From Marsupella aquatica (taxonomy: Eukaryota > Plantae > Marchantiophyta), in the NCBI GenBank assembly GCA_973895155.1, contig OZ316898.1, positions 374,751 through 438,750 of the forward strand: a DNA stretch of 64,000 nt, written 5' to 3'. The notes under the pieces are model-generated. The model had not been told where the DNA came from. It ran no database searches and was given only the letters and a program-made list of their open reading frames with translations. The position numbers and the translations under genes were made by a program. Positions 21,028-45,475 of this stretch are shown one piece after another. Every line of letters starts with the position of its first letter. Position 1 is the first letter of the stretch.

Positions 21028-21900
21028 TCACTCTGATTCAAAATCGCTAATGACCCATTCCTCACTTGTTGTCTCATAGTCCTCTCTGTAAGGATCCTGA
21101 CCCTTCCGTGGCCAGGCCTCAAAAAGATCATAGTCCATTGGGTTTTGACGCTTCCCAGCTGCTACTGATTCCACAAGCCAAGCATATGAAACCACAAACA
21201 CATTATGGGACATGACATAAAAGCGAATGTCTCCCTTCCCAAACTTGCGGCAGGCTTTGGGATATGACTTAGTAATGACATGAGTGGTGTCCTCTGTTAT
21301 ATTCTCCTCCACTGTCCCACCTAGGTCAAGCACTGTGGACTTGTACACTTTGCACTTAACCTCTCCAATTCCCGCCTCCACAAATACCATGCTCAGCCCT
21401 TTTAGAATGGGGGTTGGTTGCTTCGTCTCCTCAGCCAACATACTCTTCAGCCTTGTAGAGCTCTGTCCTTTGTTGAGTACAGGTCCATATTGGAGATCAG
21501 CAAGCCGTGCCTTTGCTTCCCAGACTTCTTGTTCAGCCCAAGCTGATGCAGTAGCTTCTTCATCCTCCCACAACTCATATTGCTCAGTATCCTGTACAAT
21601 CTTATGTGCTATGGAATCTGTGATCCAAGAGGCCTCAACTACTTTTAGGCCTTGCTTAGTAATTGCAGAATTCATGTAGGACCATGACCACTTCTTTATC
21701 ATTGATAGCCATGTCCCTGCAACAACATGTGTAGTCTCTGGAGTGATGTCCTAAACTACAGTGCCATGGAGCTCAGAGAATCGTTTCTGTACAGTTGGCC
21801 AATGCACTTTGGTCAACCCATGCTGGCCATGGACCAAAATCGCTCTGACCCCTGTAAACACTGCTGGGTGGTCACACTTTCTACGTTTCCCAGGCTCCAT
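21028..21900 (-). pseudogene. Tandem BRCT-domain protein (~290 aa) with one in-frame TAG at 21751-21753
   Basis: ATG at 21900. Repeat 1: VFTGVRAILV..LHGTVV*DITPETTHVV..VVEASWITDSI. Repeat 2: LKGLSMVFV..LGGTVEENITEDTTHVI..VVSYAWLVESVAAGK. Confidence 0.8.
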
Positions 21901-22509
21901 GTACACACACCCTACGTGATGACAGTGAATTTTGGAAGAATGGGTTCACCTGACAATACAAGGACAACAAAATTCCTGCTTTTTGAGTTGATCTGGCCCA
22001 CTGGTGCTCAGGTCTGATTTTGATAGGTACAAGGGATATGTGAACAATACGTACTAGGCACCTGCACGGATGCAGGACATTGTTTGAATATATACTACAA
22101 AATCCATATCCGTGGTGAAATGAAGTGCAACCAACTTGTCATGGCACATACATATTTTGTTGTAAAGGAGGATACATTCAATGACAAACTTATAGGGCAA
22201 TTTGATTAATTGCATGCCTGATAATTTATACGCTTACAACTTAGAAGTCCTGTTTTAATTTAGCAGTCTGATGAAAGTGTTTATGAAAATGAAGTGTTTA
22301 TGAAAATGACCACTCAGCCTAAATACTTCCAAGAAGGCTTGTAAGGATAAGTTTGTATAGGCATGTACCCAGCCACTGACGCCAGAGCACAAGATAAGTG
22401 CTGCCTATATAAACTCGCCTACCCAACTCCTTTTCAAAATTGGAATCTCTGCAATCTCAAAAAATAGTACATCCACATCAGGTGCATTGTGCATGTACAA
22501 TGTTCAGCT

Positions 22510-23190
22510 TCACAGCCAAGATATGTGATCTCTCACAGGAGTGCGCGAGGTAGGATCAATGGCATGGCGATGACAATAAAATATCCATCGATCAACACCA
22601 TGTGCAGAGTGATCATAGATTTCTCTGTCACAAGCATAACCCTCTGCTTGACGATCTTTCAGGCAATGATAGTGCCACATAGTGGGACACCTAGCACAGT
22701 GAACTATGTCAGTCCAGTAGTCATCATCATGCTCACCACATGCCTTGCACCTATGAAGTGGGCAAGTTGTGGCATGAGCAGGCAAACACTCAAAACAGAA
22801 AAATCTCACACAAAAATGGTCTGGACATTTCCTAACATTTGCTGCAGCATCAACAGAGCCCTCATAGGACCCCAACTTCCCACACTATGCACACTTAGCC
22901 TGCTTCTCCAAACAATCAGTGCACATCCAGTCTCCCTGGTGTGTTGACGGGAGGCCCACCCCTGGACAGTTGTTTTCTGCAGCAAGGTCAGACTCCGGGT
23001 TGAGGTGGAAATGCCTCATGCAAGGGCCCTCACAAATGACCAGGCCCCCACCATCATCACAAATGGCATAACAATGAGCTGCCTTTTGGAAAATCTGACT
23101 TGCAGAGAAGTTAGTAGCATCTGCCCCAAGTACACCTGTGTTTCTCACCTCTGTCACACGCTTTTTGGCTTGAATTTTAGGTCGTGCCAT
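22510..23190 (-). pseudogene. EDM2-like composite (triple) PHD-finger protein (~226 aa), with one in-frame TAG at 22885-22887
   Basis: ORFs 22885-23190 and 22510-22875 are in frame. Motifs AICDDGGGLVICEGPCMRHFH, WMCTDC, TCPLHRCKAC, CARCPTMWHYHCL and IFYCHRHAID..TPVRDH follow the plant EDM2 PHD cassette as I recall it. Confidence 0.82.
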
Positions 23191-23201
23191 GCCTGCGCAT
23201 G

Positions 23202-23345
23202 AGATAGACTCTACAGTTTAGCAGACTACACAGAAAGTAATATATATTTAGCATTTAAGGTACAAAGGCATTTAGATAGACTCTACAATTTAGCAGACTG
23301 CACAGAAAGTAAAATATATTTAGCATTTAAGATACAAAGGCATTT
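23202..23345. repeat. 72-bp tandem duplication immediately upstream of the PHD gene ATG
   Basis: AGATAGACTCTACA...AAAGGCATTT occurs twice. Confidence 0.85.
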
Positions 23346-25726
23346 GCTACTGCAATGAATTGGAATGGCCACACAAGGATGTAGAGCAGACATACTTTTG
23401 GTATGTTGAGCCCACACACAAACCTGATCCCCTAATACAATTGCTCCACCAACACCTCAATTTTAATTGTGGCTATGATTCACCAAAGGAGATCTGCAAC
23501 AACATTTCATGCATTTGAATCACATACAATAGTCGTGACATGTAAAACAGGCATTCTTCGAAGAGGATTGGTATGAAGCAGTGTCATAAGGGTTGAAATT
23601 TATACATCCTAAATAGGCTATGATAGTGGCTGAGACAAATAAGTGATGCATAAATCACATTTTACAGGTTATCACATGGCCCATTAATTCATTGAACGTT
23701 GCAATGTTCACCAGGTTAAAGCAATCATGAAAGCAGTCTTTCAATAGAGACTTTTATGCGAGTTTGCTAGCCTCCTAAATTAGGATATTTTGCTTAGTGC
23801 AGGCATAATAGGATATAAGTTATGTACTGTTGACCCTAAACCTTGGACCTCGGGGGTTTCACTTCCACAAAAATGACATATCACGTGCGACAAAGGATAG
23901 GGTCATTTTATTGGTTCTAAGGGAAGACTTAAGAATTTTTGTAGAAGAACAATAGGGTCTTTTAAATTCAATTTTGAGACTTATAAGAATATTAGGGTAT
24001 TTTTAATCCAATTTTTAGAATATTCCAAGAATATTCCAACTTTCTAGGGGTTAAAAAATTTAAAAAATTTCTTACATTTTAGGGGGTCCGAGGCCTAAAA
24101 ACATCGCAGGCGATGGGGAGGTCCCCATATAGTGAGACCCCCGAGCCCTGGACCCAAAATTGCTCATACATCAAAATTTTAAGTAAATATCCTCTGTGTT
24201 GAAGTCAGAGTGTTAAGCTATAGGTCAATGGTATCTGGTCTGTGCATGCGGTGTGACAAGTGGTCCTCTAGAGCATGTGATCCAAACATGTGTAGACACC
24301 AAAGTCACCGGTGGTGGGGTCTGGGAGGGCAGGACAAGTGACATCACCAGGCACACTGTAGGATGGCGAGTGGTTCTAGATGATACATTGTGCTCTATGC
24401 AAAAATTGGCATCCAAGAGAACGGTCATCCAATTCTGGGCCAGAAGCCCTACAGGCAGGACAATCATATTGGCAACTGTGTACACACCCTTGGCACCTAA
24501 TTTGTGGCGGGTCATGTACAAGAGACACAAATACCAAGGATGTCGGGAAGGGTACTGAAGCAGGTAGAGGCCGGCTGTAGTTGTTCCTGGAAACAACAGG
24601 GTACTCAAAGTACCATGCAGACTGAGCTAGAAGGATCCCAAGTCTGACATACTCAAGGCGCAACATCTCTGCCTTGCGTGCAAGTCGCACATGTTCAGCG
24701 TTGCGGGTCCTCACCATAAGTGTTGCTTTCGTTGTGATGTCCTCTGTTCACGTCCTTTGATGAGCAAGGTGAGCAGGAGGTCGACTTGCCTCGCCAACAG
24801 CAACCACCTAAACTAATCAGTTCCCACTCATTGTCTTGGTTCCAACTACAGGTCATAGTATACACATAGCATGAAACGTGCATAGTACATATTTGATTCT
24901 GAGTTTATGAGTTTCCTAAGACAAAGAGCTTGGTGATAAACCCATATTCTCGACGGACATGTATATCAATCATATTAAAATCCTGTTTTTTCATCCAGAA
25001 AGACCGAAAGTCTCACCTTGCAGGTTGCAGCAGAGAGAAAATTCACTGGTTGTCGTGTTGTGCAAGTGAACCTCCACTGATGCCCCCGGTGTAGCCCCTC
25101 AGATGCAAGTGACACTTACCAACTCCCAAGTTGCCTGGTCTAACAGAAAATGCTTATATCTTCATAACTTTATAGAGCAAGTACATGATCACATACTTCT
25201 GGATCTATTCATATTTGGAACTCTTGCCAACTACAACTCCCATTATGCACAAGCTCACATCAACAGAGAAAGATACAGAATGCATACTTACTATGGCTCT
25301 AAGCACCTTCACTACCTTGTTGAACCCAGTCCTGAAGTCTTTTCAACGTGTTTGTTGTGCTATCTCCTTTGGCACCCAACACCTTAGTCCTTGATGTAAC
25401 AGAATGCGATTTTACAAGTTAGATGCTTTGGAACCTTCTATGGTCTTAGCTGAATTGATGTCATCGTAAGTGGTGAAAGACAAGGAAGACGAAAGCTGGT
25501 TGAAGAGCTGTGGACAACACACTAGCATGAAGTGCTTCAACCAATCCACTGCCAAACGGAACTCTTACACAGTCACATTCTTTCAGTAAACAGAAACTCA
25601 GTCAAACTTCATAATCAAAGTACAGACTCTGAAGGACCAAAGGAGGATGTTGTGAGTTTCTCTGTTGTTTAATGTGTTACCCTTCTAGTTTCGAAGTTAG
25701 CAAATGCTGAATAATGTGTCTACCAG

Positions 25727-26066
25727 ATCTTCGAAAAGAAGCCCACCACAATTAAGAACTTCGGTATCTGGGTGAGGTATCAGAGTTGTACAGGTTATCC
25801 CAACATGTACAAGAAATATCGTGATACCACATTAAACAACCACACAGCAGATGTATGATGAGATGGCTTCTTGTCATAGAGTTTGGTTCCCTTGCATCCA
25901 GATCATCAAGACTACGACAGTCCCTGTCTCTCTGTGCAAGCGAGAAAGTACCAAGCAGTTCCATGATTCAAAGATCAAGTTCCCCTTGACGTACCGCAAG
26001 ATTCAACCTCCATCGCGAAAGCTAAAGACGACTTACAAGGCCACCAAGCCCAACACATTTGTTTGA
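25727..26066 (+). pseudogene. RPL18A: 60S ribosomal protein L18a (eL20) C-terminal exon fragment, frameshifted
   Basis: cag|[36 protein letters not shown]... then [55 protein letters not shown]. Confidence 0.9.
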
Positions 26067-26859
26067 GTAGTGCGGGTGCAGGTTCCCAATTTTGAAACAA
26101 TTTGGCTCATTTTATGTCCCGAGGGACTCCAGGAGTTTATGTATTGAGTTTCTAGGTCAAGATGCTTAATATAAGGAAATTCAATTATCACCTCGTTCCC
26201 AACTTCTATTAATTGAATATACACAAGCTGGAAGCAAGAAGACAAGCCACAATCTAGCATCTTAGCCAAACACAATCGTCCCGACAAAGCAAAACTCAGC
26301 TGGACAGAAGTCACTCGGATCCACAAAAAATTGAAGATTCACCTCCAAGCCGGAGGCCGATCACTTCAGTACAACAGCTTCTGGACGGAACAAACTCTGC
26401 TCAGCCCCACAGAAACACAAATGTTAAGGCTCCAAGTCAGAGCTCACAAACAGAAACTCAGATAAATAACATTCAAAATCTGTCCACGTTTGTGCAAAGT
26501 GTACATATTCATTCTTCTGGAATGAACACGCAATGCATACATCGCCTAGACACAGTCATTATAAATCATTGGGCAATTGGGGACCACTAAGCAGGTGTGT
26601 TCCTATTTCGAGGCTACAGGAAAGGATAGAGTGACACCAAACTGAAGAGTACACCAAAAGAAAAACAGCAAGAACCAAAGTCAATCATGTGTGGATAAAT
26701 TGCACATGGGAAGTTCCCCTGAAGAAGCACCAGTTGCTAACATTGTCACCCGAACCACACCCAGTTTATTACCTCAATGTCTTCAGCCTCAATATCCAAT
26801 CCTCAGCCCCCTGGTGCTTCCGTGTTTGTTCTGAAAATTTCTGTGATGAAATAATTATT

Positions 26860-27112
26860 TGTCACACCATTCTGAGTAGTGTAGTAGTATATCGTGCTAT
26901 TAGAGTATGTATGTTTGGTATGAGTGCTATTGGAGCCGATAAGGTTCTGTCAGGTTTGTGTGAGAGGGTACTTCTCACTTGTGAGGCATTGAAAGGTCAT
27001 CTTTCAATGTTGAGCCTTGGAGAGAGAGGAGCTTGAGTGTGGCTATGGTGGCTGTGAGCTCCGCTTGTGTAATGTGGATTCCTTGAGTAGTGCAAGGTGC
27101 GTTGGCTTGACA
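26860..27112 (+). repeat. Candidate 5' LTR (TGTCA...TGACA, 253 bp)
   Basis: 5-bp terminal inverted repeats; a second copy at 3526-3774 starts at exactly the same base; no canonical TGG PBS follows. Confidence 0.6.
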
Positions 27113-27459
27113 TACGTGTGTGATCGGATCGGTGCGGGATTGATGGGGTATTGTTGACCGAGATCGTTGTGCCGATTGTATGGAGATTACATTGAAAGAT
27201 CACATTCGAAATCTGTTGTACGGACTGTGCGGACAGAAGTTCGATTGATTGAGTTGTCGACGGTTCGTGGTAGCTCGGATCGTGTGTTGTTATCGAACAG
27301 ATCGTTGGTATCTTGACCTATATCGTTGTTGTCCGATCGGCTTGCTTCCCAATCGATGTACAGATCTGTGATTGGTGACAAGTTTTGAGTTGGAGGTCGA
27401 TTGATGATTCGTGGAGGAAAGCGAATGTTGAGTAGATGTTGGACAGTGGAAGTCGATCC

Positions 27460-27549
27460 GTGAGGCTTCAGATCCGATTGCCGACTACTGTGAGGCTTCA
27501 GATCTGATTGTCGGCTACTGTGGGGCTTCAGATCTGATTGCCGGCTATT
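27460..27549. repeat. Three copies of a 30-bp tandem repeat GTGAGGCTTCAGATC(C/T)GATTGCCGACTACT in the gypsy leader
   Basis: Read directly. Confidence 0.9.
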
Positions 27550-27789
27550 GTTGGACGATGTTGGCAAGGCGCAGGTGAAGCGACGGCTCTTTTCCTGAAG
27601 GAACGGAGCTGCCAATGCCCCGTGCGACGGTATCATCATTTCAGTGAAAGAAACGAGGGTCAAAGGTGTTGAATCAAGCTGCTGCCAGTTCTGTGGAAGG
27701 GCTGCGTTTTTCATGAAGGAAATCGACAGTTTTTGGGAGCTTTTCGTGAAGGAAGTAGTCATTTTTGGGGTCAGGTGTGAGGCGCACGA

Positions 27790-27996
27790 GGTCACCCATC
27801 CCGAAAGTGCTCGCGCGAGGCGACGCGTGAGGTCACCCATCCCGAAAGTGCTCCCAACCGTGAGCGCGAAGTCACTCATCGCGAGCGCAGGCAGGCGCGA
27901 GGTCGAGGTCACCCATCCCGGGGCTATTCCGGGCCGTGAGCGCGAGGGGAGGCACAAGGTCGAGCGCGAGGAAGTCACCCATCCCGGGGCTATTCC
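27790..27996. repeat. CpG-rich cluster of GTCACCCATCCCG motifs (4 exact, 1-2 degenerate) in the gypsy leader
   Basis: Read directly. Confidence 0.88.
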
Positions 27997-30900
27997 CAGC
28001 CGCGAGCGCTTAACTGGCAAGTTCTCATCCCACCTTGTGTACACACAAGCTTTGACAACTTGTTGTTTAGATTCAAGCGCTAGGGGGCTTTATACACTTC
28101 CTGGTTTGTTTAGAGGCCTATTCTAGGCCAAATCAGAGGCTGTTTGAGGGTTTTTGATACTTCTGAGTCCATCTAGACTCACAGATTGAACCAATTTTGC
28201 CTTGGTTCTCATCTATAACATTGGAGTGCCATTGTGAAGCCTATTATGAAGGCTCTTCCTTGAACCTTATGCACATTGTCATATTGATTTGCATTTGCTT
28301 TTGTGTGGAGAGTTGAATGGTATCCATTCTTGTTTCTGGATCCTCTTCACACATGTTTCCTGTTTATGCGCCATGTTAGTTTCGTGTGGGCGCTTGATTC
28401 CATAGGAGTGATCCGGGTTTGCAACTGGACATTCTAGTGTGCTGTGTATTTCTCTCTTGGTGATGTTGGAGTGATGCCCAACACACTATGGTGAGTGCTT
28501 GTGGTGCTGACAGGGATAGATTGCCCTTAGGGTTAGCACATAGATTAGGTTAGGGTTGGTCACCACGGATTCTTCTGGTGCTGCTGGATTACCCGATGGA
28601 CGACGGACCGGTTTCACTCGGAGTAGGGCACAGTTTCGGCCAGCGGCATTGGTAGCAGTCAGCAGTGCAGCTTCAGACAGTGATTCTGATGAGGACTCAG
28701 TGACCAGTTCTCCTCATCATCACGTGGTTGCACCTTTGTTGTGGGATATGGACGAGATGTACGGGGCTACAAAGGGCCCACGACGATACTCTGGTGCAGT
28801 TGGCACAATTGATCTGGATGACTTCATCCAGGAGTTTGATACGTGGTGCGATATGCAGACATTGCGTAATGTCACGTTGTTTACCCCTTTCATGGCATGG
28901 AAGGGATTATTCCAGCATTTGGAGGGGCCACCCATGAATGACTACCATGAGTTTCGGAAGGCTCATTTGGTTGAGATTGAGGCATGGAGGCAGCATTGGT
29001 CGCCTAATTACGTGTCCATCACCTATGGCACTAGTGCGGCTGCCCAACCAATTGCCACAGCTGCTGCTTCTTCTAGCAGCACTAGCCAGAGTGGCACACC
29101 ATCCACCACCAACACTCCAGCAGCATCCACCACTACTCCTGCCGGTGTGATTGTGACAGGAACTGGAGTTGCGCCAGCATTTAATCTTGTGGTGGAATTC
29201 TTTGAGGTACTGAAGTAGAACTATCAGGGTGTGAGAACTGATAAGTTGAAGGGTCTTCAGGAGTTCCAACGCAAGACTGGAGAGAGCCTACGTGAGGCAT
29301 ACACACGTATGCGCAGATTGATCACTGTCACCAAGGGAGTGACAGAGGCTCAGGCAGTCCAGTTTTGGTATGCAATTCTGGACAGAGAATTGCGACGCAG
29401 AGTGAGAGATGTCACTCTGCTTAGGGATTCAGATCCCACATTAGCAGTTGTTTTCACCCTTTCGGAGCGCATTGAGCTCAATATGGTGAATGAGAAGGTG
29501 GTGACTTCCGGATTTGCCAAGGAAGCACCAAAGGCTGCATCTACATCCACACCACAGCCTACTGCACGGAAGAGCCAGAGGGAGAAGCCTACTGCACGAG
29601 AGTCTACCAGCCAGAGACCTATGCCCTCTTATGCTGGACAGCAGTCAGGATGTTGGACCTGTGGTGGGGATCATGCACAGAGATATTGTCCAGATCATAG
29701 AGGATCAGGGGGAGCATCAGCGCCTGATCAGCGACAGTGTGATCATTGTGGAGCTCCTGGACACACCAAGGATAGGTGTTTCTCACTCCACCCTGAGTTA
29801 CGGAGAGGAGGATCCCGTACACATGATCAGGGAAGAGGAGGTAGAGGTGGTGGACGTGGTCGTGGCATGCCACATGCAGGGAGACAGGGAGGTGACGCTG
29901 CCCCTGCTATAACCATAGATCCAAAGGATGCTAAGATTGCTCAATTGGAGCAACAACTAGCTGCCATGGCTAGTTCCCAGGTGAGACCTAATTCTGGTGA
30001 TGGGGCATCTACATCCTATGGACCTTCCACATCCCATGGTCCTTCCACATCTTATGGAGCTGATGGAGACCTTGCCACCATGGGATTCATGTGTGGCACT
30101 GCACATATTGATGCATCAGCAGCTTTGACACGTGGGGCAGCCAAAGCTCTTGAGCCCCGAGGAGCAGTAGTGGAGTTAGATCCACAAAGGGGGGATGCAC
30201 GTCGGCAGACAAAGCTTCCTCAGTCTTTTACATTGTCAGAGACAATTCAGACTGCCTCTATGAACCCGGTTCGGACAAACCCTGATGTGGGTAAGTTGGC
30301 AGAATCAGGTAGTGATGCAGCAGGGATGACATGTACCTTGCTGGGGGCGGCTACTGCCATAGTACGCACCCCATTATTTTCAGCGACAGACATGCTGAAC
30401 TTGGGAGTTGGTCCTGCAGAAGTGTTCAGATTGGCAGCTACACTCTGTGAGGACACTCCAGTGGTTGCTTCCCATGTAGAAGCAACTTGTAGTGTTGATG
30501 CAGTGAAGACCATGCCACCTACTGCTACTAGTGAGACATGGCATGCAGCAGCAGCGAGGTTGGTGGATTTACCAGCACGCCCTGCATTTGAGAGGACTAG
30601 GTTTAAACCTAGTGTTGTGTCATTGGATAATCGGAGTGGTATCTTCCGATTAGTTGGGCCTTCTGGAGCAGTATACCAGCCAGAGAGAGTGTTACTGGAT
30701 ACTGGTGCTCAGCCCTTGATGTTGGGGAAGTCTGCCATACGTGGATTGGGACTGCGTCCAGAGGATTTGGAGGATTGTCCCTTTCCCATTCAGACTTCAT
30801 TGGGGGGACCTACACCTACACAGCATATCACCAGGAGACCACTTGATTTGAGGATTCAGGAAGGTCATACCACAGATACAGGCGCGAGCTATTCTGACTA

Positions 30901-31394
30901 AGGCAGAGTCATATGATGTGTTGGTGGGATGTACAGTGCTCTACCCCATGGGATTTATTCTTGATTTTTGGGAGGAATCAGTGTCATATAGACCTGATTG
31001 GCAATCAGGAGATGCTCGATTGAGCAAATTGCCAGTGAGATTTAGTGGACCTGTGGGAGGCTCTAAATCCACACCATTGTCTTTGGCAGCATTCAGTGGT
31101 GTAATTGCTGGACCTGATGATTTGATTGAGGGTAATGCGCATGCAGCCGATGTTCCACCATTGGAGGAGTCTCATGAGGAGCACATCATGCGAGGGTTAC
31201 CTGTTGGCAGTGTTGTGCCACCAGTGTGGGGCACTGCACAAGCCTTGCCACAGGCAGCAGCACGATTGGTACATGATGCATGGCGTCATGCTTTTACACC
31301 ACAGTCAGGAGTAGAGCAGTCTCTTGCAGATGGACCTGTGACTCTTTCACCATTGGATACCACTCCTATTGCTTGGCAATATCCACCGGAGGGT

Positions 31395-32340
31395 ATTTGT
31401 TTGTTGGATCTTTTTGGTGGGATTAGCACTGGATTGGCTGCTATTCTTCAGGCAGGAATTCCTATGCGTCGTTATTTATATGTGGAGATAGATGAGACAG
31501 CACGGAGGGTCTCATTGCAACATGTGGCTATGTTGGTGGATAGATATCCACAATTGCTACCAGTGGATGCTGTTCGTGGTTATCAGCATGCACTACCTGC
31601 TGATATTTCATTGTTGGGGGCGGATCATCTACATCGTGTTGGCCCCATTGATTTGGTGATTGCTGGTTGGCCATGTCAGGGCCAATCTAGAGCTGGCGTT
31701 GGGCATGGACTTCATGATCCACGCTCTGCATTATTTTGGGAGATGTTACGGGTGCTGCGTCACCTCCAGTTACATCAGACACAGTCTCCAGCATACATTT
31801 TGGAGAATGTGCCATTGTTAGGTGATGATCGTAGTCGGATTGTTGCCAGTGTTCACCAGGTGAGGTCTTGGATTGGACCTGCTGTGTTATTGGATGCTGC
31901 ACGTGTGGGTTCTCGTGCACATCGTCCACGCTTATGGTGGACTAATTTGATCCCATGTGAGGTGCTGAAGCGCGCATTTGACAGCATTCCACGCTCACCA
32001 GTCTTAGTGGTGGATGATATTTTGGATCCAGGGCGTCGTGCACAGGGTGTGACCCAACCTGATAGACCTCCATTGGCAATGGTCAATGCAGTTGGGTGCC
32101 CACATTGTGCATTACCCACTCTTGTAAGCCACTCTGCTTCATATGCATTCAGAGCAGGTGGCCCTGGACTTGTATGGGACACAGCTCTCCAGCAGTTAGT
32201 GGAGCCTACTGCTGATGAGGGAGAGCGTGCTATGGGATTTTTGACTAGCACCACTGCAGTTGCCTCTGTGTCAGAGGGTTTGCGGCGCCAGGTTCTTGGT
32301 CAAGCAATGGATTTGAATTGTTTGACTTGGATTATCAGCT
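31395..32340 (+). other. C5-cytosine DNA methyltransferase domain (DNMT3-like, canonical motif order) within the polyprotein
   Basis: Motif I LDLFGG (DLFGG 31407-31421), II VEID, III ADI, IV AGWPCQG (PCQ 31671-31679), VI ILENV (ENV 31803-31811), VIII AHRPRLWWTNL, IX ERAMGF, X RRQVLGQAM; no stop inside the domain. Confidence 0.93.
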
Positions 32341-35300
32341 TGGGAGTAGCTGAACAGTTGCGGATGCGCTCTGCCGGAATTACTGATTGTCCCTTGGTGA
32401 GCTTGCGGTCCACTGAGACAGTATTGACCACAGCTGGGGGCGAGCAGACAGTCCATGGCCCTATGACAGGATTGGCAGCTGGACAGATTGTTGAGCAAGA
32501 AGAGACTGCTCAATCTACTGCTAAATAGCAATCATCGGCTATCTCTTCTACCCTACAAAGAGATATTAGGGATTTGGTGGAGAGTTGGGAACCACAGCTT
32601 GGCCCTAAGTTAACAGGGGAGGAGAGACGTCGCATGCATCGATTCCTGAAGAGTTATTGGAATTGTTTTGCATTCAGCATGAAGGATTTGGGGACATTGA
32701 AGGGCCCTGGTATTCAGATTGAATTGGCTAGTGATGCGCCAATCTTTCGTAGACCATACCGTTATAGTGACATGGAGAGAGCTCTGATTCAAAGCAGAAC
32801 TCAAGATTTGTTGGAGGCTGGATTGGTGGAGATTTCATATGGGGAGTATGCATCTGCCACAGTGATGCCAGCCAAGAAGGATGTGCATGGCAATTACACA
32901 GATAGGCGCATGTGTGGTGATTACAGACCTATTAATTGCCAGACAAAATCTGATCGATATGCCATGCCCACACCTGAGGAGATCTTTGATGCTGTGGGGC
33001 ATGCAAAGGTTTTCAGTTCATTGGATCTGAGGGCAGGATACCATCAGCTTCCAATTAGGCATGCTGACAGGTCCAAGACAGCATTCTGGGGGATTGATTC
33101 TTATAGCAAAGATCGTTTGTATCAATGGTTATTCTTACCATTTGGGTTGAAGAATGCACCAGCTGAGTTCCAGAGAGTCATGGATCGAATCCTTGCAGGT
33201 TTGGATTTTGTCAGATGTTATATTGATGATATTTTGGTCTATTCTTCTACTGTGGAAGAACATCAGCAGCACTTGCAGACTGTGTTGGAGAGATTGAGAG
33301 CACATGGGTTGAAGCTCCATCCTAGCAAGTGTAAGTTCTTCCAAGACCAGATTGAGTATTTGGGCCACACCATATACCCAGGGGGATTGGGTGTACAGCA
33401 GACTAAAGTGGAGGCCATTACACAGATTCCTTGTCCTACTGATGTGAGTAGAGTTCGTGCATTCTTGGGATTGGCGAGCTACTACAGGAGGTATGTTAAA
33501 GGATTTAGCCAGCTTGCTAAACCTTTGACCATACTCACTAAGTTGGATCAGGAATGGATTTTGGGTGATGACCAGGAGCATGCCTTTCAGGAGTTGAAGC
33601 AAAGGTTGGCATCATCCCCTATTTTGAGAAGACCCATTTCAGGCAGACCATTTCAGCTACACACTGATTGGAGTGGAGTAGGACTTGGAGCAGTGCTGAC
33701 TCAGAAGGATGATGAGGGGAATGAGTTTGTTGTGGCTTATGCCAGTAGATCAAACAATTCAACAGAGGCTAAGTATAGCTCTTATGAGGGAGAGTGTTTG
33801 GTAGCAGTGTGGGCTGTTGCACACTTTCGTTGCTACTTGTTTGGTAACCCCTTCACCTTGATCACTGATCATCAGCCTCTTAAGTGGTTAATAGAGTCTG
33901 ACAAGCTTACAGGGAAGCTTGCACGATGGGCATTGTTGTTACAGGAGTATGATTTCCAGGTGGTGCATAGGCCTGGAAAAGTGAACTTGGATGCAGATGG
34001 ATTAAGCCGCAATCCATGTACCAGTCAGCAGGATGAGACTGGAGCCAGATGGCATGATGAGTCAGATAAGGAGATGGTGCCAGGATGGCATGCATCTGCC
34101 TTTCTTTGTTGGGTGCCAGCATACAGTGGATCTGTGGACTCTACTTCATTGGATGGAGTGGGTGATGAGTCTTCAGATGTGGATGTTGGTGAGGTAACTT
34201 CTGGACAACAAGATATTCACAATGATGTGAGAGTGTTGGAATATCTGCGCAATAGTTCTATTGTTGGCAGTGTTGATGCCAAGGAACGTGACAGGATTCT
34301 ACAGAGAGCCAAGAGGTTTCGATGGGAGGGAAACCATCTTTTGAGAGTACTGCATGATGGTAGGTTGTTGGTGGTACCAAAACCATCACAACGAGTACAT
34401 TTGGTGCGACATGCGCACGAGGAGTTGGGTCACTTTGGTGTGAAGTGCACTTACAGCTTGCTGCAGACGCAGTATTGGTGGCGTGGTATGCACACTCATG
34501 TCCAGCAGTTGATAGCTAAGTGTGTGGTATGTGACAGAGTGAGAGCATCATTTAATGCTCCCACTCCCCAGTTGCACCCATTACCGATCATGGGTTTGGG
34601 ATATCGTTGGAGTTTGGATTTTGCTGGTCCATTACCTCTTACCCAACGTCATAATCGGTATGTTTTGGTCATGGTGGAGCACTTCTCCAAGTGGATTGAG
34701 CTAGTGGCGTTGCCAGATAAAGCCAGTGGAGGAGTTGCTGCTACATTTTTGGATCGTGTACTCAGTCATTTTGGAGCACCAGCTGAGGTGTTGACTGATC
34801 AGGGAACTGAGTTCCATGGAGAGTTTGAGAGTTTGTGTGAACAAGCTCTGATCATCCTGAGGCAGATGGATTAGCTGAGAGAGTTGTGCAAACTGTGAAG
34901 AGAGGATTGCGTAAGTATGGCTTGCAGGTTGGTCATCTGGGAGATTGGGATCTCCAGCTACCTTGGTTAGCTATGGGCTACCGTTTCAGTCGGCAAGCAT
35001 CACTTGCATCCTTCTCACCCTACTTTTTGCTCTATGGTAGAGAGCCAGATTTGCCAGCAGCTATTCATCGTCATGCTGCACCAGTTGTGAACTTGGATGA
35101 TCCTGATGTTTGGGTCAAGGTGTGTTCAGAAAGAGCACGGGTATTTCAGAGAGTGATGCCCATGGCTTTTGACAACCTTGCCATTGCCCAACATCGTGAT
35201 ACTTTGAGGTATGCCACTATTCGTGGAGGAGGTTACCGTGCAAGCATTCGACGATTTCATCCTAGTGATTATGTTTATTTGCAGCAGACAGCACCCACGA

Positions 35301-35488
35301 CACTTGATGTGACCGCAGGCCGGACAATCTTACGTGTGCGTGAAGTGTTGCCTTCTGGTGTCCTGATGTTGGAGGGACGCGATGGTATGGTTTGGAAGGA
35401 TCATGTGCGCAACTGTGCACCATGTCACCTTCCCAACATTGATGGTACAGTAGATCCAAGCTTGGCACATGTTCGTGTTGGCTTGAAA

Positions 35489-35623
35489 TGTATGTTGTGT
35501 GGATCTGCTCAGGGAGCAGCTACTATGTTGATTTGTGATAAGTGTTCTAGAGGATGGCACATGTCATGTTTGACACCACCATTGCAGGTGATTCCTAGTG
35601 GATCATGGTTGTGTCCTCAGTGT
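35489..35623 (+). other. PHD finger at the integrase C-terminus
   Basis: C4HC3 pattern CMLC..MLICDKCSRGWHMSCLTPPLQVIPSGSWLCPQC. Confidence 0.92.
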
Positions 35624-35793
35624 CGGTGAAGCCGACTAGTTATCATTTGTGTTCTCTTGGCAGATATGGATTGCAGGTAGGTGATCGATGGGGCTCACTT
35701 GCACCCGGCCTCCTGATCTTCACACCTAAAAAGGTGTATATCAACCTTGTAGAACTCATGGCTAGCTAGAGTTAGGGGACCTTACTCCCAGCT

Positions 35794-35800
35794 AGGGGGG
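35794..35800 (+). promoter_or_regulatory. Polypurine tract of the gypsy element
   Basis: AGGGGGG, then CGAT, then TG at 35805; ~165 nt after the polyprotein stop. Confidence 0.7.
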
Positions 35801-36990
35801 CGATTGTGGGTTTTGGACATGTGTGGACATGAGTTCCACTTGTATTCCATTCTCTTGTATTTGTGATGTGGCAGTGTGACTATGTCTGGATGTATGTGAC
35901 AAGCGATGTATGTTGTGTAGCGATATGTATGCGCACGACATATTCAATACATTCAATAGCAAAGAGAACTCAATCACAAAAGAAAAATAGTTAGTGTGAA
36001 TGCTAATTTCTCAACACTTAACTAAATTCAAACCACCAATTCAAGTAGTAAGTTTCAAAAACTTGCCTTTACATGAAGAGAAACCAATTGGCCATGCATG
36101 TTACTAAAGCAATAAACAAATAATTAGGCTCAACCCCGGGCTCAACACACAGGCAAACTACTCGAAACATGCTGCTGAGAAGTAGCATTTTTTGAATGTC
36201 AGACTATGTGTAAGTGCCATGATCGTGCTCCTACGTTTCACAAGGAGGGCTGGCCCGAAAGGGAGAAGCAACAATGTGGAGTCTATACACGTAGCACAAA
36301 TCCCAGTTTAGAAGGGTGGATGAAGTTCAGACAAGAGTTCAGAACTTGCCATTTGAGATTGCCAATCTGAACTTCACATTCAGACAGGACTTCATCCAGT
36401 TCAGGAGTTCAGATAGGAGTTTAGACAATCTGAAGAGGACTTTGGACTTGAATGAGGGACAGCGTGGCCATATAGTTATCCTTGTGGCCTTCAGCTGCGT
36501 GTCTCAGGCTGAATTTCACTTTCCAGTTTCGAGAGTTCTGAAGGTCTAGTTTTAGTAACTTCCTCCTGACTCGACTTGGGAGCATTCTCCCTATTTGCTA
36601 GCTTGTAGTTAGCTTTGACTCCTGTGAGCTTAGTTGACGACCCTCTTGAGATATTAACAATTAGAACAAACACAAGTTGTCAAGACAGATTCCACCGGAG
36701 CAAAAAGTCCAAAATCAGGTGAAAGAAAACCTAAGGAAAGTCCATAAGAACGAAAGTAGGAAGGCAGGTGCACGGGCCACCGAGAAAAGTAAAGGATGCA
36801 TGTGATTAGTGGGGAGGGATCTTAGCAAAAACAGGGGAAAGCAAGGGAACTTGCTGCTAAAATCAGCTGAACGATTGCACGGTTCCTATAAATTTAGTGG
36901 ACCTTAAGGCCGTCTGTTCACCCCCCCACCCCATTGCCAGAGCACGGGGCACAAGGCATGTTCTGATACAGGGAGGAGCAAAATAGTCAT

Positions 36991-38036
36991 GTCAAGCAAG
37001 AAGTGTGGAGAGACCAATCAGTAAGCAAAAATAGGGGAGAACATACATACATGATCAGCAGCAGCAGGAAACAAGAAAGATGATTTCGGGTGGCATCTTA
37101 GGGTCGGGGACACCACTGCAACACCGGGACTTAGGATATGAGTTGTTCTTAATCTGCTAGTAGCATCCGGCAGGCCGGCGACCCATGGCAAAAGGGCAGA
37201 GCAGCAATCCGCTAAAACTACCGAGTCTCACCTTTGCGCTACTAACTGTCACCTTTGTCCAAGGTAGCTAGTAATAGCAAGTTGAAGTCCCGCTCCAAGT
37301 TGTCGGCTTCCACTCCAAGCTCCCTTAAAGATTGTGGCCTCAGGTCCAAGTCGTTAGCTCGCACGCGCAACTCCCTAAACCTACACACAGCGGAAGCTTA
37401 GCTCACCAACAACTTGCAGAAACAATGACCTCCCCTCTGAAACTGATAAAAACACCTGAATACAAATAGTGAAGCACGAGGACAGAACAGGGAGAAGCGT
37501 TTTGCAGTTTGGGACGACAATGCTAGGAGTGTATACACTTCGGGCAACAGGGAGGTCCAATAATAGTTTGAATCTGACGGATGAAGCTCTAGGCGAATGA
37601 GCTCCAGGAGATTGGGTGCATGATTGAGCAGGCGATTGTAACAGCAGGCACCTGGCGATTGAAGGAAGCAGCATTCGACAGTGGACCTAGGCAGCTCACG
37701 AATTTTGCTCAGCATCGATGTCACCTAGACCCTAAACACGCAATGCATACATCACCTAGACAACTATACTTGCAGCCACGAGGTGAGTCCGCGATAGGGG
37801 ATTGAAGGAAGCAGCAAGTCAAGCAAGAAGTGTGGAGAGACCAATCAGTAAGCAAAAATAGGGGAGAACAGACATACATCAGCAGCAGCAGGAAACAAGA
37901 AAGATGATACTCTGTTCCATCTTAGAGTCGGGGACACTACTGCAACATCGGGACTTAGGATATGACTTGTTTTTAAACTGGAGATAGCATCCAGCAGGCC
38001 AGCGACCCATGCCAAAAGGGCAGAGCAGCAATCCGC
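36991..38036. repeat. ~220-bp dispersed direct repeat (36991-37212 and 37818-38036) inside CACTA-1
   Basis: GTCAAGCAAGAAGTGTGGAGAGACCAATCAGTAAGC...GGGCAGAGCAGCAATCCGC occurs twice. Confidence 0.88.
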
Positions 38037-41000
38037 CATGTAGCGATAGGTGAGAGCAGCGATTACGACGATGAAAGATGGTCGAAGCTGAAGCAAAACC
38101 CCTAAAGATGCAGCTTGGCCATACTCTCCTTCCTCACCTCATAGCGCTAGGCATTCAACCTCCCTCTTCAATGAACCTCACAGCAGCTTGAAGGTCGATA
38201 GATTTTACCTCGTCTCCTGAGCAGAAACGTCTGCATTAGCTGAACAGAGCCCGGAATAGAGCTATCGCATTTAGCCTCCCGACTCCAAAATCAAACGCAA
38301 CACAACCTCCAACTCCCAATGGCAGCTCAGCAGGTTGATCAGCTTGGTCAATGCAGGTCAGTCGACCTCAATAGCCACACTAGAAGCTCACCGCAAGTCA
38401 CTCAAAGGTTAGACTAGAAGCTCCGCCGCCTTCACACCGTAGCAAAAAACAATGAGACCAATATCGAGCAAGGCGACCCTGTTTGAATATTTGGCGACCA
38501 TCAGGCTCCACCCCTCCTTTCTCGCTACCGTTCCCCCATGTGATGGTTAAGCTTCTCAGGACACAATCAATCGCACAAATGTAGCTTAAAGCAGGACCTC
38601 ACTAAGCAGACTATCGGTTAGGACCTTATAGACATAGAGATAGATAGGTCAATGCAACCTTACTTGGGCCGATGCAGCATGTCTCTTGACAATGTGAAGC
38701 AGCGCAGCATTCCTCCACCTAGCTCGCAGTGATCCTCCGCCTTGCTTGCAGTAACCAGCCTCCGCCTAGCTAGTTTGCACTGTCACGGCTGCAACTTTTT
38801 GTGCAATGACTTGGCCCTCCTACCAACTATGAGCTCCCAAAAGTATGTTGAGCAGATGTACACTCAGGCACCACCTCGTAGAGCTCAACTCCAAGTCAGC
38901 AGCTCTCACTTGAAACTCAATAGCAGCTTAGCTCACCAGCAGGTTGAAAAGCGACAATGGACTCCCCTCAAAACTGATTGGCAGACCTCCACACTGACGC
39001 TCGTAGCAGGCCCAATCCTAAACACATTTGCACCCTAAAGTCCAGTCGCGCTCAAACACTTTCAAACGACCCTACAGGAAGTTCGCGAAGAGTGCAGCTG
39101 GAATGAAGGTCGTCGACTCCCAATTTCCCTCGCAAAACCAACCTCTGCGGCACACTGACCCTGAACACTTAGGGCAAGTAGTACCCCCAAAATCTCTCGC
39201 AAAACCAACCTCCAAGGTACACTGACCCTGAGGGAAAGTAGTACCCCTCACATGTGGGCAGCCATCGAGTGACTTAGCAAACAGGTTGGTTTGGACATAA
39301 AAGAACCAATGCAAATGACTTAGCAAAAAGTTCAATGTGGGGAGAGTGCACTTTGGTCAAGAACAAGGCCACATATAGTCAGGTATGAATCCACATTATA
39401 AGTGAAAGTACCCACCATTCTGATGAAAACCCCCATATTTATACCCATTATATTTGGACTTATTGAACCATGAGTGTGCAATATGTAGTTGCACCGGGAG
39501 TTGCATATTAGGGATTGGCATCCGAAATTGGCTAATGGGGTATGCATGTTGACGGAATTTTTAAAAATGATGTCCAATTCATATTGCACTATTGTGGAGT
39601 AACTAACATAACCTATTTCTTACTTACCAGTGTTACAATAGCGACATTGGATAAAGTTGTAAGCATGACTTCCCACAACCTCACCAAAACTTAGTTGGTA
39701 TGATGTAACTAACATGACACCCACAAACTTGGAGTCGCATATTTATGAAGGCCTCGCACAAGTCACATAGGGGAGGGTCTCAAAATGGGTGGTTTTCTTC
39801 TAGTGCCCCTTGGGCAATGGCACGGCTTGGCCTACTTTTCAACGGGCCTTTTTCCTACCTCTTGCATCCCCAAACCCCATTGGAACCGCATCCAAGATTA
39901 CTTGGCTCCTTACTCGCCAACGCCATGCCCCCTTGGGCTCCCGCTTGGGCTGGTGGTGTGATTTGTGTAACTTTTTTAACATATGGGTGTTTGAGAGGAG
40001 GTGGTCCCCTCATACATACTTATGGGGACCTGCCACCCCTGGACCACATTTGGTCCCGATATTTTGGCCCCCAACCCTTGCATTTTTTACTTCTAAATTG
40101 GGTGGCAAGTGATCATGGCAAGGTCAAGGGCTTAGCATGGAGTTGAAATCATTCATAGGAAGGAGTTCACTTAGGGCCAAGGATGGCTCAGTTTTATGAG
40201 GTTTGTTTGACAACAAGGGAGCATTTGGACCTGAAACCCATAGGTGGTTGCTCCCAACTCCGGTCGCGAGGGCAAACTTCAGTCCAAGAGGGGCAAGGCC
40301 AAGTCATCATCATCGGTTGGAGCAGGCCGGGGTTGGCGTTGGCCCTTGCTTGGAGTTGGCCATCTCTAGTCTAGGCTCGATGAGGACGTTGTCACTCATC
40401 GGCCAAGGGTGGGTCGTTGCACATACAAATTCTTCTGTCTGCTCCCCTTCAAAATCATTGTCTCTCCCGACCTGACTTGAAGTTCACCATCGCTCCATTG
40501 ATGACCATTTGAATCCAACACACCGAGTGAAATCAAATTCTTACGCATGCCAGGTACATACCTGACTCCAGACACTATGCGCACCACTACTACATATTGG
40601 CCCCTTTTGCGAAGCTTTTTTTTAAGCCGGGATGGTCTTGCGATGTCATCGACTTCAGATATTTTGTGATCAAACACGCATCACAATAAAGCATGCTCAA
40701 AGGTTTGCAACATAGTGTTGCGAAGCTAAATACCTCGCAATTTGTTTGAGATCGGATTGAATTCGCAACTCTTTTAGATACTATTCGTCTCGCAAAGTAT
40801 TTGTGGATCCGCGACCATCGCGACTGCATTTGGATCTCTTTTGTTTCATAATTTAGCGATAATAATGTACTCAAATATATCTTGTGAACCTATTAGCTTT
40901 GCACAATATTGTGAAGTATAAATAGTCGCAAGTTACCGAAGCCAATTGATTCGCAAAGTTGAGAACCCATTGGCATCACAATTATCGATGGTGTGTTATT

Positions 41001-41338
41001 CACAAAGTGTTCAGAAGTTGCTTCTTGACAAGCTTGAAAATGTTTTGCAAAGAGAGTTGTTTGAAAAGTTTATAGAATGGAAATGTTTGAGAGAGTTTCT
41101 TTACAAGATGGAGAATGCATGTGTTTAGGTTACAGCTAGGGTTTTCAAAAAGGTGGCATGCATGAGGATAACTTTGGAAACGGCTAGGGTTGTATATATA
41201 ACAGTGAGATGAAATTTCAAAGTCCAATTAAGTGTTTGTAAAACAAAAGAAGAAAATTAATATGTTAATATAAATAAAACCATGATAGTTAGTTTAGGGT
41301 CAAATTCTGGGCCCACAACAAGTTTTACTACTAGTGCA

Positions 41339-44300
41339 TCAAACCTGGTCCTCATCCTCTCCTCCATTTGACACAATAATAATGTCAGGTTTTTCCGAGA
41401 TAATGAAACGGGACCGTGGCACATACGGTATAACAACTGACCACTCTGGGTCTAGTGGGTACAGAATATAGAAACACTGCTCAAGGTGACTTGGGAATGT
41501 AAATGGTTCAGATGTTTGCCAATGAGATGGTTGAAAGCTAGTTGCTGATGTCTTCAGTCGAGTAAACCCACACTCATCAAGAAGTACCGTGTGATTATCA
41601 CCAACCAGGTGAATTTTGAACCACTTACACTTGAAGACATACTCTTCAAATTTGGAATCGGCATCATAGGATATGATCAAGATCTCCTCAATCTTCCCAT
41701 AGTGAGGCACCACATCTCTGATCACATTAGTGTCATGACGGCTACTTTGTGAATCTTGCATGAACTGCCCTTGAACTCCACAATCAAAAGTTCTTCCCCT
41801 CTTCTCATCAAGGTCAGAAATCCTGAAATGCCTCCCTTGTGTCCACATTGTTGTTCTGGTCTGAACAAGTCTTAAAGGACCATGAACAATTGTTCGAACC
41901 TCAGGAGTCATATCTGGAAAATGTGATACATTCTCACCTTGGGCCACCATAGCATCCAACTGAAGTACTTTCTCCTTCATATACTCAAGGAACTTTGGAA
42001 AGATCCTTGGGCGACGACTCTCCCTCTTTGCATCCTCATAAAACTCTCTCCAATCTTCCATCACATTGCTGTTACTCAACATGAAAGTACTAACCTGTGT
42101 CAACTCCACTGCGGTTAGTAAGCGTGTTTTTTTTGCACATGTTAAACGGTCCTCCTCCACTTCCCTCTCTTCCATCCAAGTGCGTGGACAACTAGGATCA
42201 ATGGTAGCTAAGATGTTACTACAATAAAACATACTCTCAGCTGCCAAGTATCCAGTTGCCATGCTCCCCTCCACTCGTGCACGGTTCCGTACACAAGCCT
42301 TTAACACGGCCATATACCTTTTCAGCCAATACATCCACCTACAATGCACCAGACCGGCAATGGCAACCTCCCTCACAAGATGAACGAGAAGATGCACCTG
42401 ACAATCAAAGAAGGAAAGAGGGAGGGCCTTCTCCAACTTGCATACCACCTCTGCTGCCAATACCTCCATCCATGGTATCTCTTCTTCATATATTTCCTTT
42501 GAGCATATCCATCTCAACAAAGTGCCCAGTGACCAAAGGGCGTCTTGCACTTCTTCACTCCCCAAACCTATGATTGCCACAGGAAGTATATGTTGTAGTA
42601 AACGATGATAGTCATGTGTCTTGAGATACATTGGCCATTTATGACTGTCCTCCATCCCAAAAGCCTTACGTAGATTGGCACCATAGCCTGTAGGAAACCG
42701 CATCTGCCCTATGCGTTGTCGAAACTCTCTTCTTTCACCAACACTCAAAACCCATGGAGCTGAAGGACGATGTTCCATCCCTGTGGATTCATCAACTGTT
42801 ATCCATACATCTGGATGTCGTTCTAGATCCTGGCATGCCTCCCTAAAATTAATGTTCTTTTCCCCATAAAAGTGCTTGATCAAAGCCTTCCCAACATTTC
42901 CCTCTATATGCATGGGGTCTAACAAGTGATGAATCTTCAACTCAGGCCAATAGGGCAAAGTGGCCACTATACTCCACCTTGTCAATCCACTACCATCAAA
43001 TCCCATGGCATCTTCAGGGTCTGCCACGCTATCAACTATGGATTTCCAATACAAAAATGTTGTGCGGTCAGGTATCTCACGCTCATCACCATTGATCATG
43101 TCAAAGTCTAAAAATAAGAGGGGGTTAGACCTCATGTGATGCCCAAGTGGAAGAAACTTGGTATGACCAAGGTAGATTATCTTGTGCAGCCATTTTGAGT
43201 ACTTGGCCATATCGTGAAGGCTTGGACCACAAGTGGAGCATGCCTTGTACCCTTGAGTTTGGAACCCAGAAACAAACCCAAACCCTGCTCACAAAATAAC
43301 ATTCTTAATTAGAGTCAAAGGAATTGAAAAGTTCATGTATGTAGAATTAAAGAGGGACTTCCTTCCAAACAAACTTGATCTCCAATACATGAAAAAAATA
43401 CAAATCCATACCACTCACCTGGATAGTCATGCATGGTCCACATAATGATTCCCTTCAATTGGAAGACACGTGGTAACCCTCCTGTAGTTGTCCGACCATC
43501 ATATGCCCATACACCCCCCCATAATTTATGGAGTTCCCCAACCAAGAGCGCCAAGTAGGTGTCCATGTTTTTTACCTTAGATGGACCTGGGATAATCAAT
43601 GATAGCAATAAGAATCCCTTTTTCATGGACAACCATGGGGGAAGGTTGTAATTCATAACAACCACCGGCCAAACCGAAGTAGGGCGCCCTTTCCCTCCAA
43701 GGGAGTGTGGGCTCACCCCATCTGATGCCAACCCCAACCTCACATGACGAGGGTCACGTGCAAACTCTGGCCATTATGACTCCACATGCTTGTGATCAGG
43801 GGAATCAACTGGCAACCGCATGACGCCGGCCTCTGATCAATGTGTCTTATGCCATACCATCAATTCTGCCAAGTCAGAACATCGGTACATGTGCAACAAT
43901 CGAGGAATAATAGGAAACCAACGAACAACTTTTCTAGGCACCTTTGAGGTCAACATGTTGGTTTCATATCGAGGCTCTTGACAAATTGGACACTCAGTTG
44001 CGCTGGCATTGATCTCATGATAGAGAATGCAGTCATTCACACAAGCATGAATGATATGGTATTCCATGCCAATGGATGATAGAACCCTCTTTGCCTTCTT
44101 CCAAGTTCCTGGCAACACATTTTCACTGGGTAACAAGAGATCATGGCAAATTTGCAAACAAATCCGATAGTAGCGCATTGCTTGCCTTGTGTTTTGCTTG
44201 AAGATTCATCAATGCCAAGATGGCAGATAGTCTATTCAAACGAGCACCCCCATAAATAGGTGTTCTAGCATGTGCCTCAGCTTCTTCCCATTGTTTTTGT

Positions 44301-44605
44301 CCTTCAGGTGTACGTTAAGCCCTTGGATCATGTGCAACATTTGGTGGAGGATCTCCTTCATTGGGTGGGACACCTCCTTCACCACCAATGTCTACACCAA
44401 ACCAATCTATCATGAAGTCATCCATGGCTGACTCTTGGTCTTGCATGACCTCATAATCTGTCTGAGGTGCCCCTTCATCTGGACTGTCATTATCATTGTC
44501 ACTTGATGAGGAATCTGCTGATGATGTTTCCCCGTCTTGTGGCAAGCCCATTTCTTGATATGTAGCTCTCAACCTCCTTGGCAACATATCTTGACTAGGC
44601 CGCAC
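41339..44605 (-). pseudogene. CACTA-2 TnpD transposase, degraded in its 5' half
   Basis: Motifs IIHACVNDCILY, RLGLASDGVSP, YNLPPW, WTMHDYPG, LDPMHIEGN, KTHDYH, FFDCQVHLLVH, RWMYWLKRYM and EPFTFPSH. Confidence 0.93.
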
Positions 44606-44759
44606 ATTCTATAGACAATACAATAAAGCATTCACAATGAAATTAACTCCAAATATAGTAGTGCTCGAAACATATTATTAACAATATAAAAAGAACATGT
44701 CATTACAAAACATACGTTCACATACGATGAACGTATAATACATGTCCCTAAAGTAATCC

Positions 44760-45475
44760 TAATCCCATTCTAATGTGTAAACAACTTCTCTCCAGCCAGA
44801 ATGGTCCTATTAGCTACAACCAGACAATGGTCATGATGATATCTCTGCCCATAAGGGGGCTGGAGGGGGACCATCAACAAAAACCCATTCACAGTTTTTC
44901 CTACGCTTAGGCCGGGTCCCCACAGTACTGTTGATGAAACCGGCAATATTCCCACTACGGATGGGATCACCATCAATTATACGCTGGTCACAATACTTTA
45001 TGGTGCAACCATCAAAAGTATCCATGTCCAATGCATAAGTCTTCCACTCAGGGTGTTGAACAAGGATCATGTTCCAATGTCTCCTCTTGTAAATGGGTCC
45101 ACCATACGGGAACAATGTTGGTCCATCCGAAGAGCGCCCTTTTCCACCCATATCATCCACAATAATGTCCTGACAAGAGAAAATCCCATACCCATGCCTC
45201 TCCCCTAGGGTCGAACTCTTGACAACCCAACGTCTTCCCTAAACTTCTATCTCCTCACCATAGGTTATATCACATGGCAAACCAAGACACTCCGGATTCC
45301 AATCCTTTATGATAGGAACACACCTCCCTGTGAACGTACAAGGGCCCCATCTACCATCAACCCTACAAGTGTACTGATCCACTTCCCCTCTAGGCTGTCT
45401 TTTTGACTTTTTTTTCCCTCTTGTAACAATACCGTCACCCTGAATTGTCCCAACACTACCTTGCCCTGCTGCCAC
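44760..45475 (-). pseudogene. SET-domain (lysine methyltransferase-like) gene inside CACTA-2
   Basis: Reading through the TAG at 45239-45241 gives VVKSSTLGERHGYGIFSCQDI..LFPYGG..YAL..IDGDPIRSGNIAGFINS..NCEW; after a frameshift at ~44857, LVVANRTILAGEKLFTH. Confidence 0.78.

Follow-up and report, generated by a model that had tools for sequence, protein, structure and literature searches.

Organization of the Locus

The window, i.e., the whole stretch of 64,000 nucleotides of Marsupella aquatica contig OZ316898.1 that was analyzed, was plant DNA made almost entirely of nested transposable elements. The only host gene was Snf7/VPS2-like and lay at 7.1–8.6 kb, and the nearest named proteins to the ORFs of the window were from Marchantia, Calypogeia, and Sphagnum. 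Chromatin-type domains were found in three of about eight element types, namely two CACTA transposons (CACTA-1 and CACTA-2) and a Gypsy retrotransposon, and these cargo-bearing elements spanned positions 12141–51093, reaching past the interval given in the earlier note on both sides:

12141–39805, minus strand: CACTA-1 element, ends CACTAGAAGAA, target-site duplication (TSD) CCC, nested insertions inside
12999–15154, minus strand: CACTA-1 TnpA/Ptta-like exons (Transposase_24, E 0.001, below the cut-off)
16866–20612, minus strand: CACTA-1 TnpD transposase, interrupted by stops (Transposase_21, DUF4218, DUF4216, Transpos_assoc)
21031–21900, minus strand: tandem BRCT ORF, one stop (21751–21753)
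22510–23190, minus strand: stand-alone EDM2-type PHD ORF, 226 aa, one stop (22885–22887), basic N-terminal R-P-K motif
26860–35940, plus strand: Gypsy-DNMT3 retrotransposon inside CACTA-1, TG...CA, TSD TATT
28748–31376, plus strand: gag, zinc knuckle, and protease, with one stop and one frameshift
31377–32351, plus strand: DNMT3-like C5 methyltransferase domain, stop-free, motifs FGG, PCQ, ENV, and RxR
32529–35488, plus strand: RT, RNase H, and integrase, frameshifted
35489–35629, plus strand: PHD finger at the integrase C-terminus
40585–51093, unstranded: CACTA-2 element within a Copia, ends CACTAC(T/A)ACA, TSD CAC
41339–44608, minus strand: CACTA-2 TnpD exons, whose start is an AG acceptor (44609), conserved and in frame
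44759–45574, minus strand: SET exon, in this copy with one stop (45239–45241) and two frameshifts
45687–45920, minus strand: exon 1, broken, Ser-rich start, C-x-C-x2-C...H motif, phase-0 donor at 45686, 5′ end approximate
48258–49358, plus strand: divergent CACTA-2 ORF, conserved in related loci and without a Pfam family, likely the TnpA-type partner

Every cargo was flanked by terminal repeats and a TSD, and the window copies of all three elements carried stops or frameshifts. The earlier note had described three separate and unrelated elements; however, the Gypsy element sits within the ends of CACTA-1, and two of the three are CACTA elements, each with CACTA ends, a 3-bp TSD, and TnpD domains, whose transposases are 28% identical. 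CG was depleted in the coding regions of all three (O/E 0.25–0.43) and in Copia, while CHG O/E was 1.1–1.2 in the coding regions of CACTA-1 and Gypsy and 0.67–0.75 in CACTA-2 and Copia. A tRNA scan of the window found no gene, and an NCBIfam search gave no informative match. On the minus strand at 59459–63256, a 708-aa ORF followed by downstream pieces had Cys/His clusters and a SWIM-like end; neither the ORF nor the pieces matched Pfam or NCBIfam even at E 10, and presumably the ORF resembles a divergent Mutator-type transposase.

The Gypsy Retrotransposon and Its DNMT3-Like Domain

The Gypsy element had the gene order PR-RT-RH-IN. Its 5′ and 3′ repeats, at about 26860–27191 and 35803–35940, were dissimilar, and no LTR pair was present in this copy. 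Contigs of runs X4 and X5 represented the empty site, joining 26855 to 35941, and contigs of other Gypsy copies contained joints from 27188 to 35803 and from 35940 to 26859, a pattern that may reflect split repeats such as those of KnitGypsy-Dnmt3. One contig of run X1 skipped 26534–36740, which suggests a further insert around the Gypsy element (short side, 26 bases). Elsewhere in the window, 3526–4072 was an 80% copy of the Gypsy 5′ repeat and the beginning of the Gypsy leader.

A DNA methyltransferase together with a PHD finger had been reported for this element, and both were confirmed. The methyltransferase domain matched PF00145 (E 1e-10), with DNMT3A as top PDB matches, and was intronless, unrearranged, and part of the polyprotein, with its catalytic motifs kept; the PHD finger matched PF00628 (E 2e-11). 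In chromoviruses, a chromodomain occupies the position where this Gypsy element has its PHD. A search of longer proteins returned 78 relatives of the DNMT domain, including sequences from Marchantia (up to 73% identity across the full domain), Sphagnum, Haematococcus, and Hariotina, and no named Klebsormidium sequence was among them; 46 of the 78 had a PHD. In Marchantia, Mp4g09160 is an example of such a Gypsy DNMT domain.

A FastTree phylogeny was built from the 71 relatives with a DNMT match of at least 250 aa, seven being dropped. It separated a group in which the domain lies before RT (25 rows, including the window and Marchantia) from a group in which it lies after RNase H (46 rows, including the named chlorophytes) with a support of 99, and one row was ungrouped. 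The catalytic PC motif was present in 61 of the 71 homologues. Since 17 relatives terminated 77–478 aa past the DNMT domain, as the window frame does, the layout suggests that the DNMT may be produced with Gag rather than with RT.

CACTA-1 and Its PHD and BRCT ORFs

The two ends of CACTA-1, at 12141 and 39805, shared 11 identical terminal bases, common subterminal words, and the TSD CCC; the left end had a dense subterminal repeat of 11 copies, and among 146 CACTA starts compared with it, the one at 39805 scored highest (12.5; next 8.0). These ends enclosed, besides nested inserts, the TnpA-like exons, TnpD, the tandem BRCT ORF, and the PHD ORF. Another CACTAGAAGAA, at 9959, did not qualify as a partner end, being on the wrong side, with a TSD of GGG and no subterminal match. 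Contig depth over 37.0–39.7 kb was about one-tenth or less of that of the CACTA-1 core, and this segment therefore represents either an uncommon insert or a subfamily's 5′ end. A broken PIF1/Helitron helicase (10771–12140, minus strand) abuts the left end, and its upstream part was not recognized beyond 39805. Depth was far above that of the neighbors at 23836–24900, where joints skipped 23836–24145; these are probably small abundant inserts, and a Cys-rich ORF of 123 aa in this stretch matched no family.

The PHD ORF aligned with residues 226–432 of Arabidopsis EDM2 (30% identity, E 4e-27), spanning the entire atypical PHD region including the C-terminal motif, with the zinc ligands kept. The RFD and methyltransferase-like domains of EDM2 were absent from the window, where tblastn of EDM2 matched 22516–23067 only. 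The closest relatives were seven proteins of 166–245 aa (42–60% identity, E under 1e-30), after which host EDM2-type proteins ranked. A quick tree was made from the window, 15 short proteins, and a random draw of 35 from 114 long ones (51 rows); in it, the window PHD and four short stand-alone PHDs formed a long-branch group (SH-aLRT 100) separate from host EDM2. An [AST]-R-[PT]-K motif shortly before the first finger occurred in nine of the 15 pre-PHD-signature members, which are kin, and in none of 136 others. The motif is reminiscent of residues 1–4 of H3, and position 9 is frequently a Lys, but it may be a plain nuclear signal.

The BRCT ORF contained two BRCT repeats (PF00533, two stretches). 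Its nearest PDB sequences were BRCA1, Rad4, Rtt107, and ligase 4, all of them weak; sequence searches found no close named relative, and a likeness of the second repeat to plant polymerase lambda was unconfirmed by the BRCT searches. Thus, of the EDM2-like PHD plus BRCT cargo claimed earlier, both domains are real, although they lie in separate ORFs, and BRCT repeats are modules for DNA damage or phospho-binding that are not specific to chromatin reading. A fusion of PHD and BRCT into one protein was discarded as the default reading, since homologous PHD ORFs stop at the same place. In runs X1 and X2, contig depth over PHD and BRCT was of the same order as over the transposase, i.e., both are co-amplified with it.

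CACTA-2 and Its SET Exon

The Copia flanks of CACTA-2 join up when compared with the unsplit Copia copy at 460–2247, and its 5′ end was identical in loci L001, L006, L034, and L037. Between its two divergent genes lay a degenerate AAACCC/TAAACCC telomere-like array (46300–47200), and an inverted-repeat cluster with a 9-bp tandem run was found within the element at 47563–47940.

The presence of a SET domain in an element, as stated in the earlier note, was borne out at the family level. Ten of 12 homologues scanned matched PF00856, six above the cut-off, and in the ESM Atlas the SET-exon family grouped with SET proteins; the window copy alone, however, had no Pfam match. The second-best ESM Atlas cluster was a SET family of ∼207 aa found most often in Basidiomycota, which may point to a connection with SETs borne by fungal elements. 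When searched with X at the stop, the SET ORF had 40 relatives, the named ones all from Sphagnum and Calypogeia. Their clusters had as many as 360 members and were spread over many chromosomes, and one Sphagnum gene model fused SET to the start of a transposase. Intact SET homologues include the Sphagnum proteins KAH8951493.1 and KAH8930834.1.

A metagenome scan yielded 37 SET loci, which represent few independent lineages since most are near-copies. The transposase exon followed SET at 143–182 nt in 18 of the 21 loci that had 600 nt or more downstream; it was there in all 16 loci with a complete SET C-terminus, and the three exceptions had a truncated SET. The 5′ terminal repeat was shared by four long SET loci and the divergent ORF by 11. 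SET depth (which does not equal copy number) tracked transposase depth in all four runs, including X5, where CACTA-1 was scarce.

The SET core was 66–80% identical among homologues and the N-linker 20–54%. GxG, YGG, and ELxxxY were kept in 37, 37, and 30 of the 40 homologues and disrupted in the window copy. Motif III is Asn-His in active SET lysine methyltransferases, and its His was found in none of the 36 homologues (of 40) that cover it; PR/SET enzymes without this His can nevertheless be active. A profile search found no PDB relative, and two AlphaFold models of the family had a pLDDT of 35. The family may be a pseudo-enzyme, since the motif III His is absent and no PDB relative was found by profile. 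Selection was estimated from 24 single-frame cores, 15 of them stop-free: dN/dS between the window SET and the 15 stop-free homologues was 0.10–0.16 at dS 1.3–1.6, while the median among close pairs was 0.73. This contrast points to long purifying selection followed by decay after insertion.

Exon 1 terminates at a phase-0 GT donor. The SET exon begins in frame at an AG; behind the SET stop comes a T-rich stretch and then another AG, at which the transposase exon starts in the same phase. The donor and both acceptors were present in the window and in the 14 loci compared, among them the divergent L020, in which conserved residues likewise start at the transposase AG, seven codons before the first Met. 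Exon 1 is thus likely to be spliced alternatively, either to SET or past SET to the transposase exon. It had no Pfam match, and its likeness to the transposase-associated zinc domain of CACTA-1 was weak (hhalign probability 4%, E 0.01). No long protein containing exon 1 was found in the protein search, which is weak evidence.

Relation to Known Systems

Published systems are compared here as described in the accessible parts of the reports. The Gypsy element shares its pol and an unrearranged DNMT3-like domain with KnitGypsy-Dnmt3 of the charophyte Klebsormidium nitens, for which DIRS-like repeats are described (PMC5890265), and the joints in contigs of other copies may agree with such a split-repeat layout. 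It differs in being in a land plant and in having an integrase PHD, the likeness being drawn from the published description; the word PHD does not occur in the main text of that paper. The KnitGypsy-Dnmt3 domain was found to be under purifying selection, yet inactive in yeast (PMC5890265, section 10). The window element fits this published kind, extended to land plants. The available text of an opinion paper states that land plants such as tracheophytes have no methylase-bearing elements (PMC6338049).

SET cargo has been described in the red-algal Plavaka/EnSpm element PAG2 (10.1101/2025.02.11.637652) and in HarbingerS and MuDR of Phytophthora (cited in PMC12730594). CACTA-2 has in common with them a SET as accessory cargo of a cut-and-paste element, Plavaka being of the same superfamily. 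By description, CACTA-2 differs as a land-plant CACTA without an adenine methylase fusion, with SET as an exon rather than a free gene and a His-less motif III. Compared with EDM2 (PMC7529245), with which it shares the whole atypical PHD region at 30% identity and the C-terminal motif, the CACTA-1 PHD protein is only about 220 aa, stands alone inside a CACTA element, and forms its own clade. VANDAL (MuDR) DNA transposons of plants likewise carry an accessory gene, VANC (PMC12730594), whose product binds to the DNA of the element and triggers demethylation, whereas a kinship or activity of this kind would be hypothetical for the present cargos.

That elements carry chromatin domains is already known (10.1101/2021.11.30.470311; 10.64898/2026.05.21.726589; PMC12344493). 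The accessible portions of 10.1101/2024.09.22.614159 and PMC9985172 contain nothing on DNMT-Gypsy, SET-CACTA, or EDM2-type cargos. In the literature searched, no report was found of a SET or EDM2-type cargo in land-plant CACTA elements, or of a Gypsy-Dnmt3 named from bryophytes; supplements and Repbase, outside that search, may list these families. Gypsy-DNMT3 thus extends a known kind to a new lineage, and the SET and EDM2-type CACTA cargos are apparently undescribed variants.

Interpretation

The locus probably reflects three independent bryophyte transposon families in which a chromatin-type module is regular cargo, likely serving the element's own spread, and whose window copies are dead and piled up by nested insertion. 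The co-occurrence within 25 kb had been read as a possible toolkit; it comprises three distinct cargos, each at the family level, amid nested elements that are abundant and broken, and needs no special cause because all three are high-copy families. The evidence consists, for CACTA-2, of the layout, conserved splice sites, and selection, for Gypsy, of architecture and motifs, and for the CACTA-1 PHD, of its position inside the ends, co-amplification, and a clade apart from host EDM2. Because the cargos are family-level and, for SET, under purifying selection, they would be expected to do something for the elements.

In CACTA-2, the zinc-finger-like exon 1 would be joined to SET or skip it to reach the transposase exon, so that the zinc-finger-SET protein would share the N-terminal docking module of the transposase and may methylate or bind histone lysines on the element's own chromatin. 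Judging from the published kind, the DNMT3 of Gypsy would travel with Gag-protease and methylate new cDNA, and the integrase PHD would steer integration. Like EDM2, the CACTA-1 PHD protein may read H3 tails in heterochromatin, and repair factors could be recruited to cut sites by the BRCT pair. An element-borne EDM2-type PHD is a plausible self-helper for CACTA-1, since EDM2 binds H3K9me2 and favors full-length transcripts over intronic elements (PMC7529245).

It is possible, if on the unlikely side, that the cargos serve targeting and DNA repair rather than chromatin marking, with SET a dead reader or acting on element proteins, the PHDs choosing sites, and BRCT recruiting end-joining. The loss of the motif III His in 36 of 36 homologues, the Gypsy PHD at the chromodomain position of chromoviruses (10.64898/2026.05.21.726589, accessible part), and the weak BRCT matches to BRCA1, Rad4, Rtt107, and ligase 4 agree with this, whereas the retention of GxG, YGG, and ELxxxY and the possible activity of His-less PR/SET enzymes speak against it. 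Rather more doubtful is a system in which CACTA-2 switches by splicing between its transposase and a zinc-finger-tethered, His-less SET methyltransferase that opens its own copies, and CACTA-1 encodes a minimal EDM2 mimic whose H3-tail-like N-terminus diverts host machinery for transcription through heterochromatin.

The lineage-wide, VANC-like anti-silencing toolkit born of an arms race, as first proposed, appears unlikely. Such domains do occur in three of the roughly eight types of element in the window, EDM2 favors the production of full-length transcripts across H3K9me2 (PMC7529245), and CHG is undepleted in CACTA-1 and Gypsy (1.1–1.2) and depleted in CACTA-2 and Copia (0.7), a weak sign. 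However, the families are common to liverworts, mosses, and algae, and so not confined to this host lineage: relatives of the DNMT-Gypsy occur in Marchantia, Sphagnum, and chlorophytes, and SET-CACTA relatives in Sphagnum and Calypogeia. Moreover, all three elements are CG-depleted, and DNMT3 writes a silencing mark; a de novo writer of this type points, by analogy, to self-methylation rather than VANC-like demethylation. Passive, functionless capture of host gene pieces (Pack-CACTA) is very improbable, for although all window copies are broken and EDM2 is represented by its PHD part only, SET has a dN/dS of ∼0.12 and a fixed position, and the PHD, at 30% identity to EDM2, retains the zinc ligands, with relatives along the whole ORF at 42–60%; for BRCT, passive capture may apply.

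Under the favored reading of three independent families, chromatin-enzyme cargo, already described from transposons of algae, fungi, and oomycetes, is extended to land-plant elements with a DNMT3 writer, a SET, and an EDM2-type reader, some of them in Marchantia, where they are testable. If a splice-switched SET and an EDM2 mimic did prove true, no earlier enzyme-based system of anti-silencing would be known from land-plant transposons. In Sphagnum and Marchantia, many gene models labeled “SET domain-containing” or DNMT are explained as transposon parts, and counts of chromatin genes in bryophytes are therefore affected.
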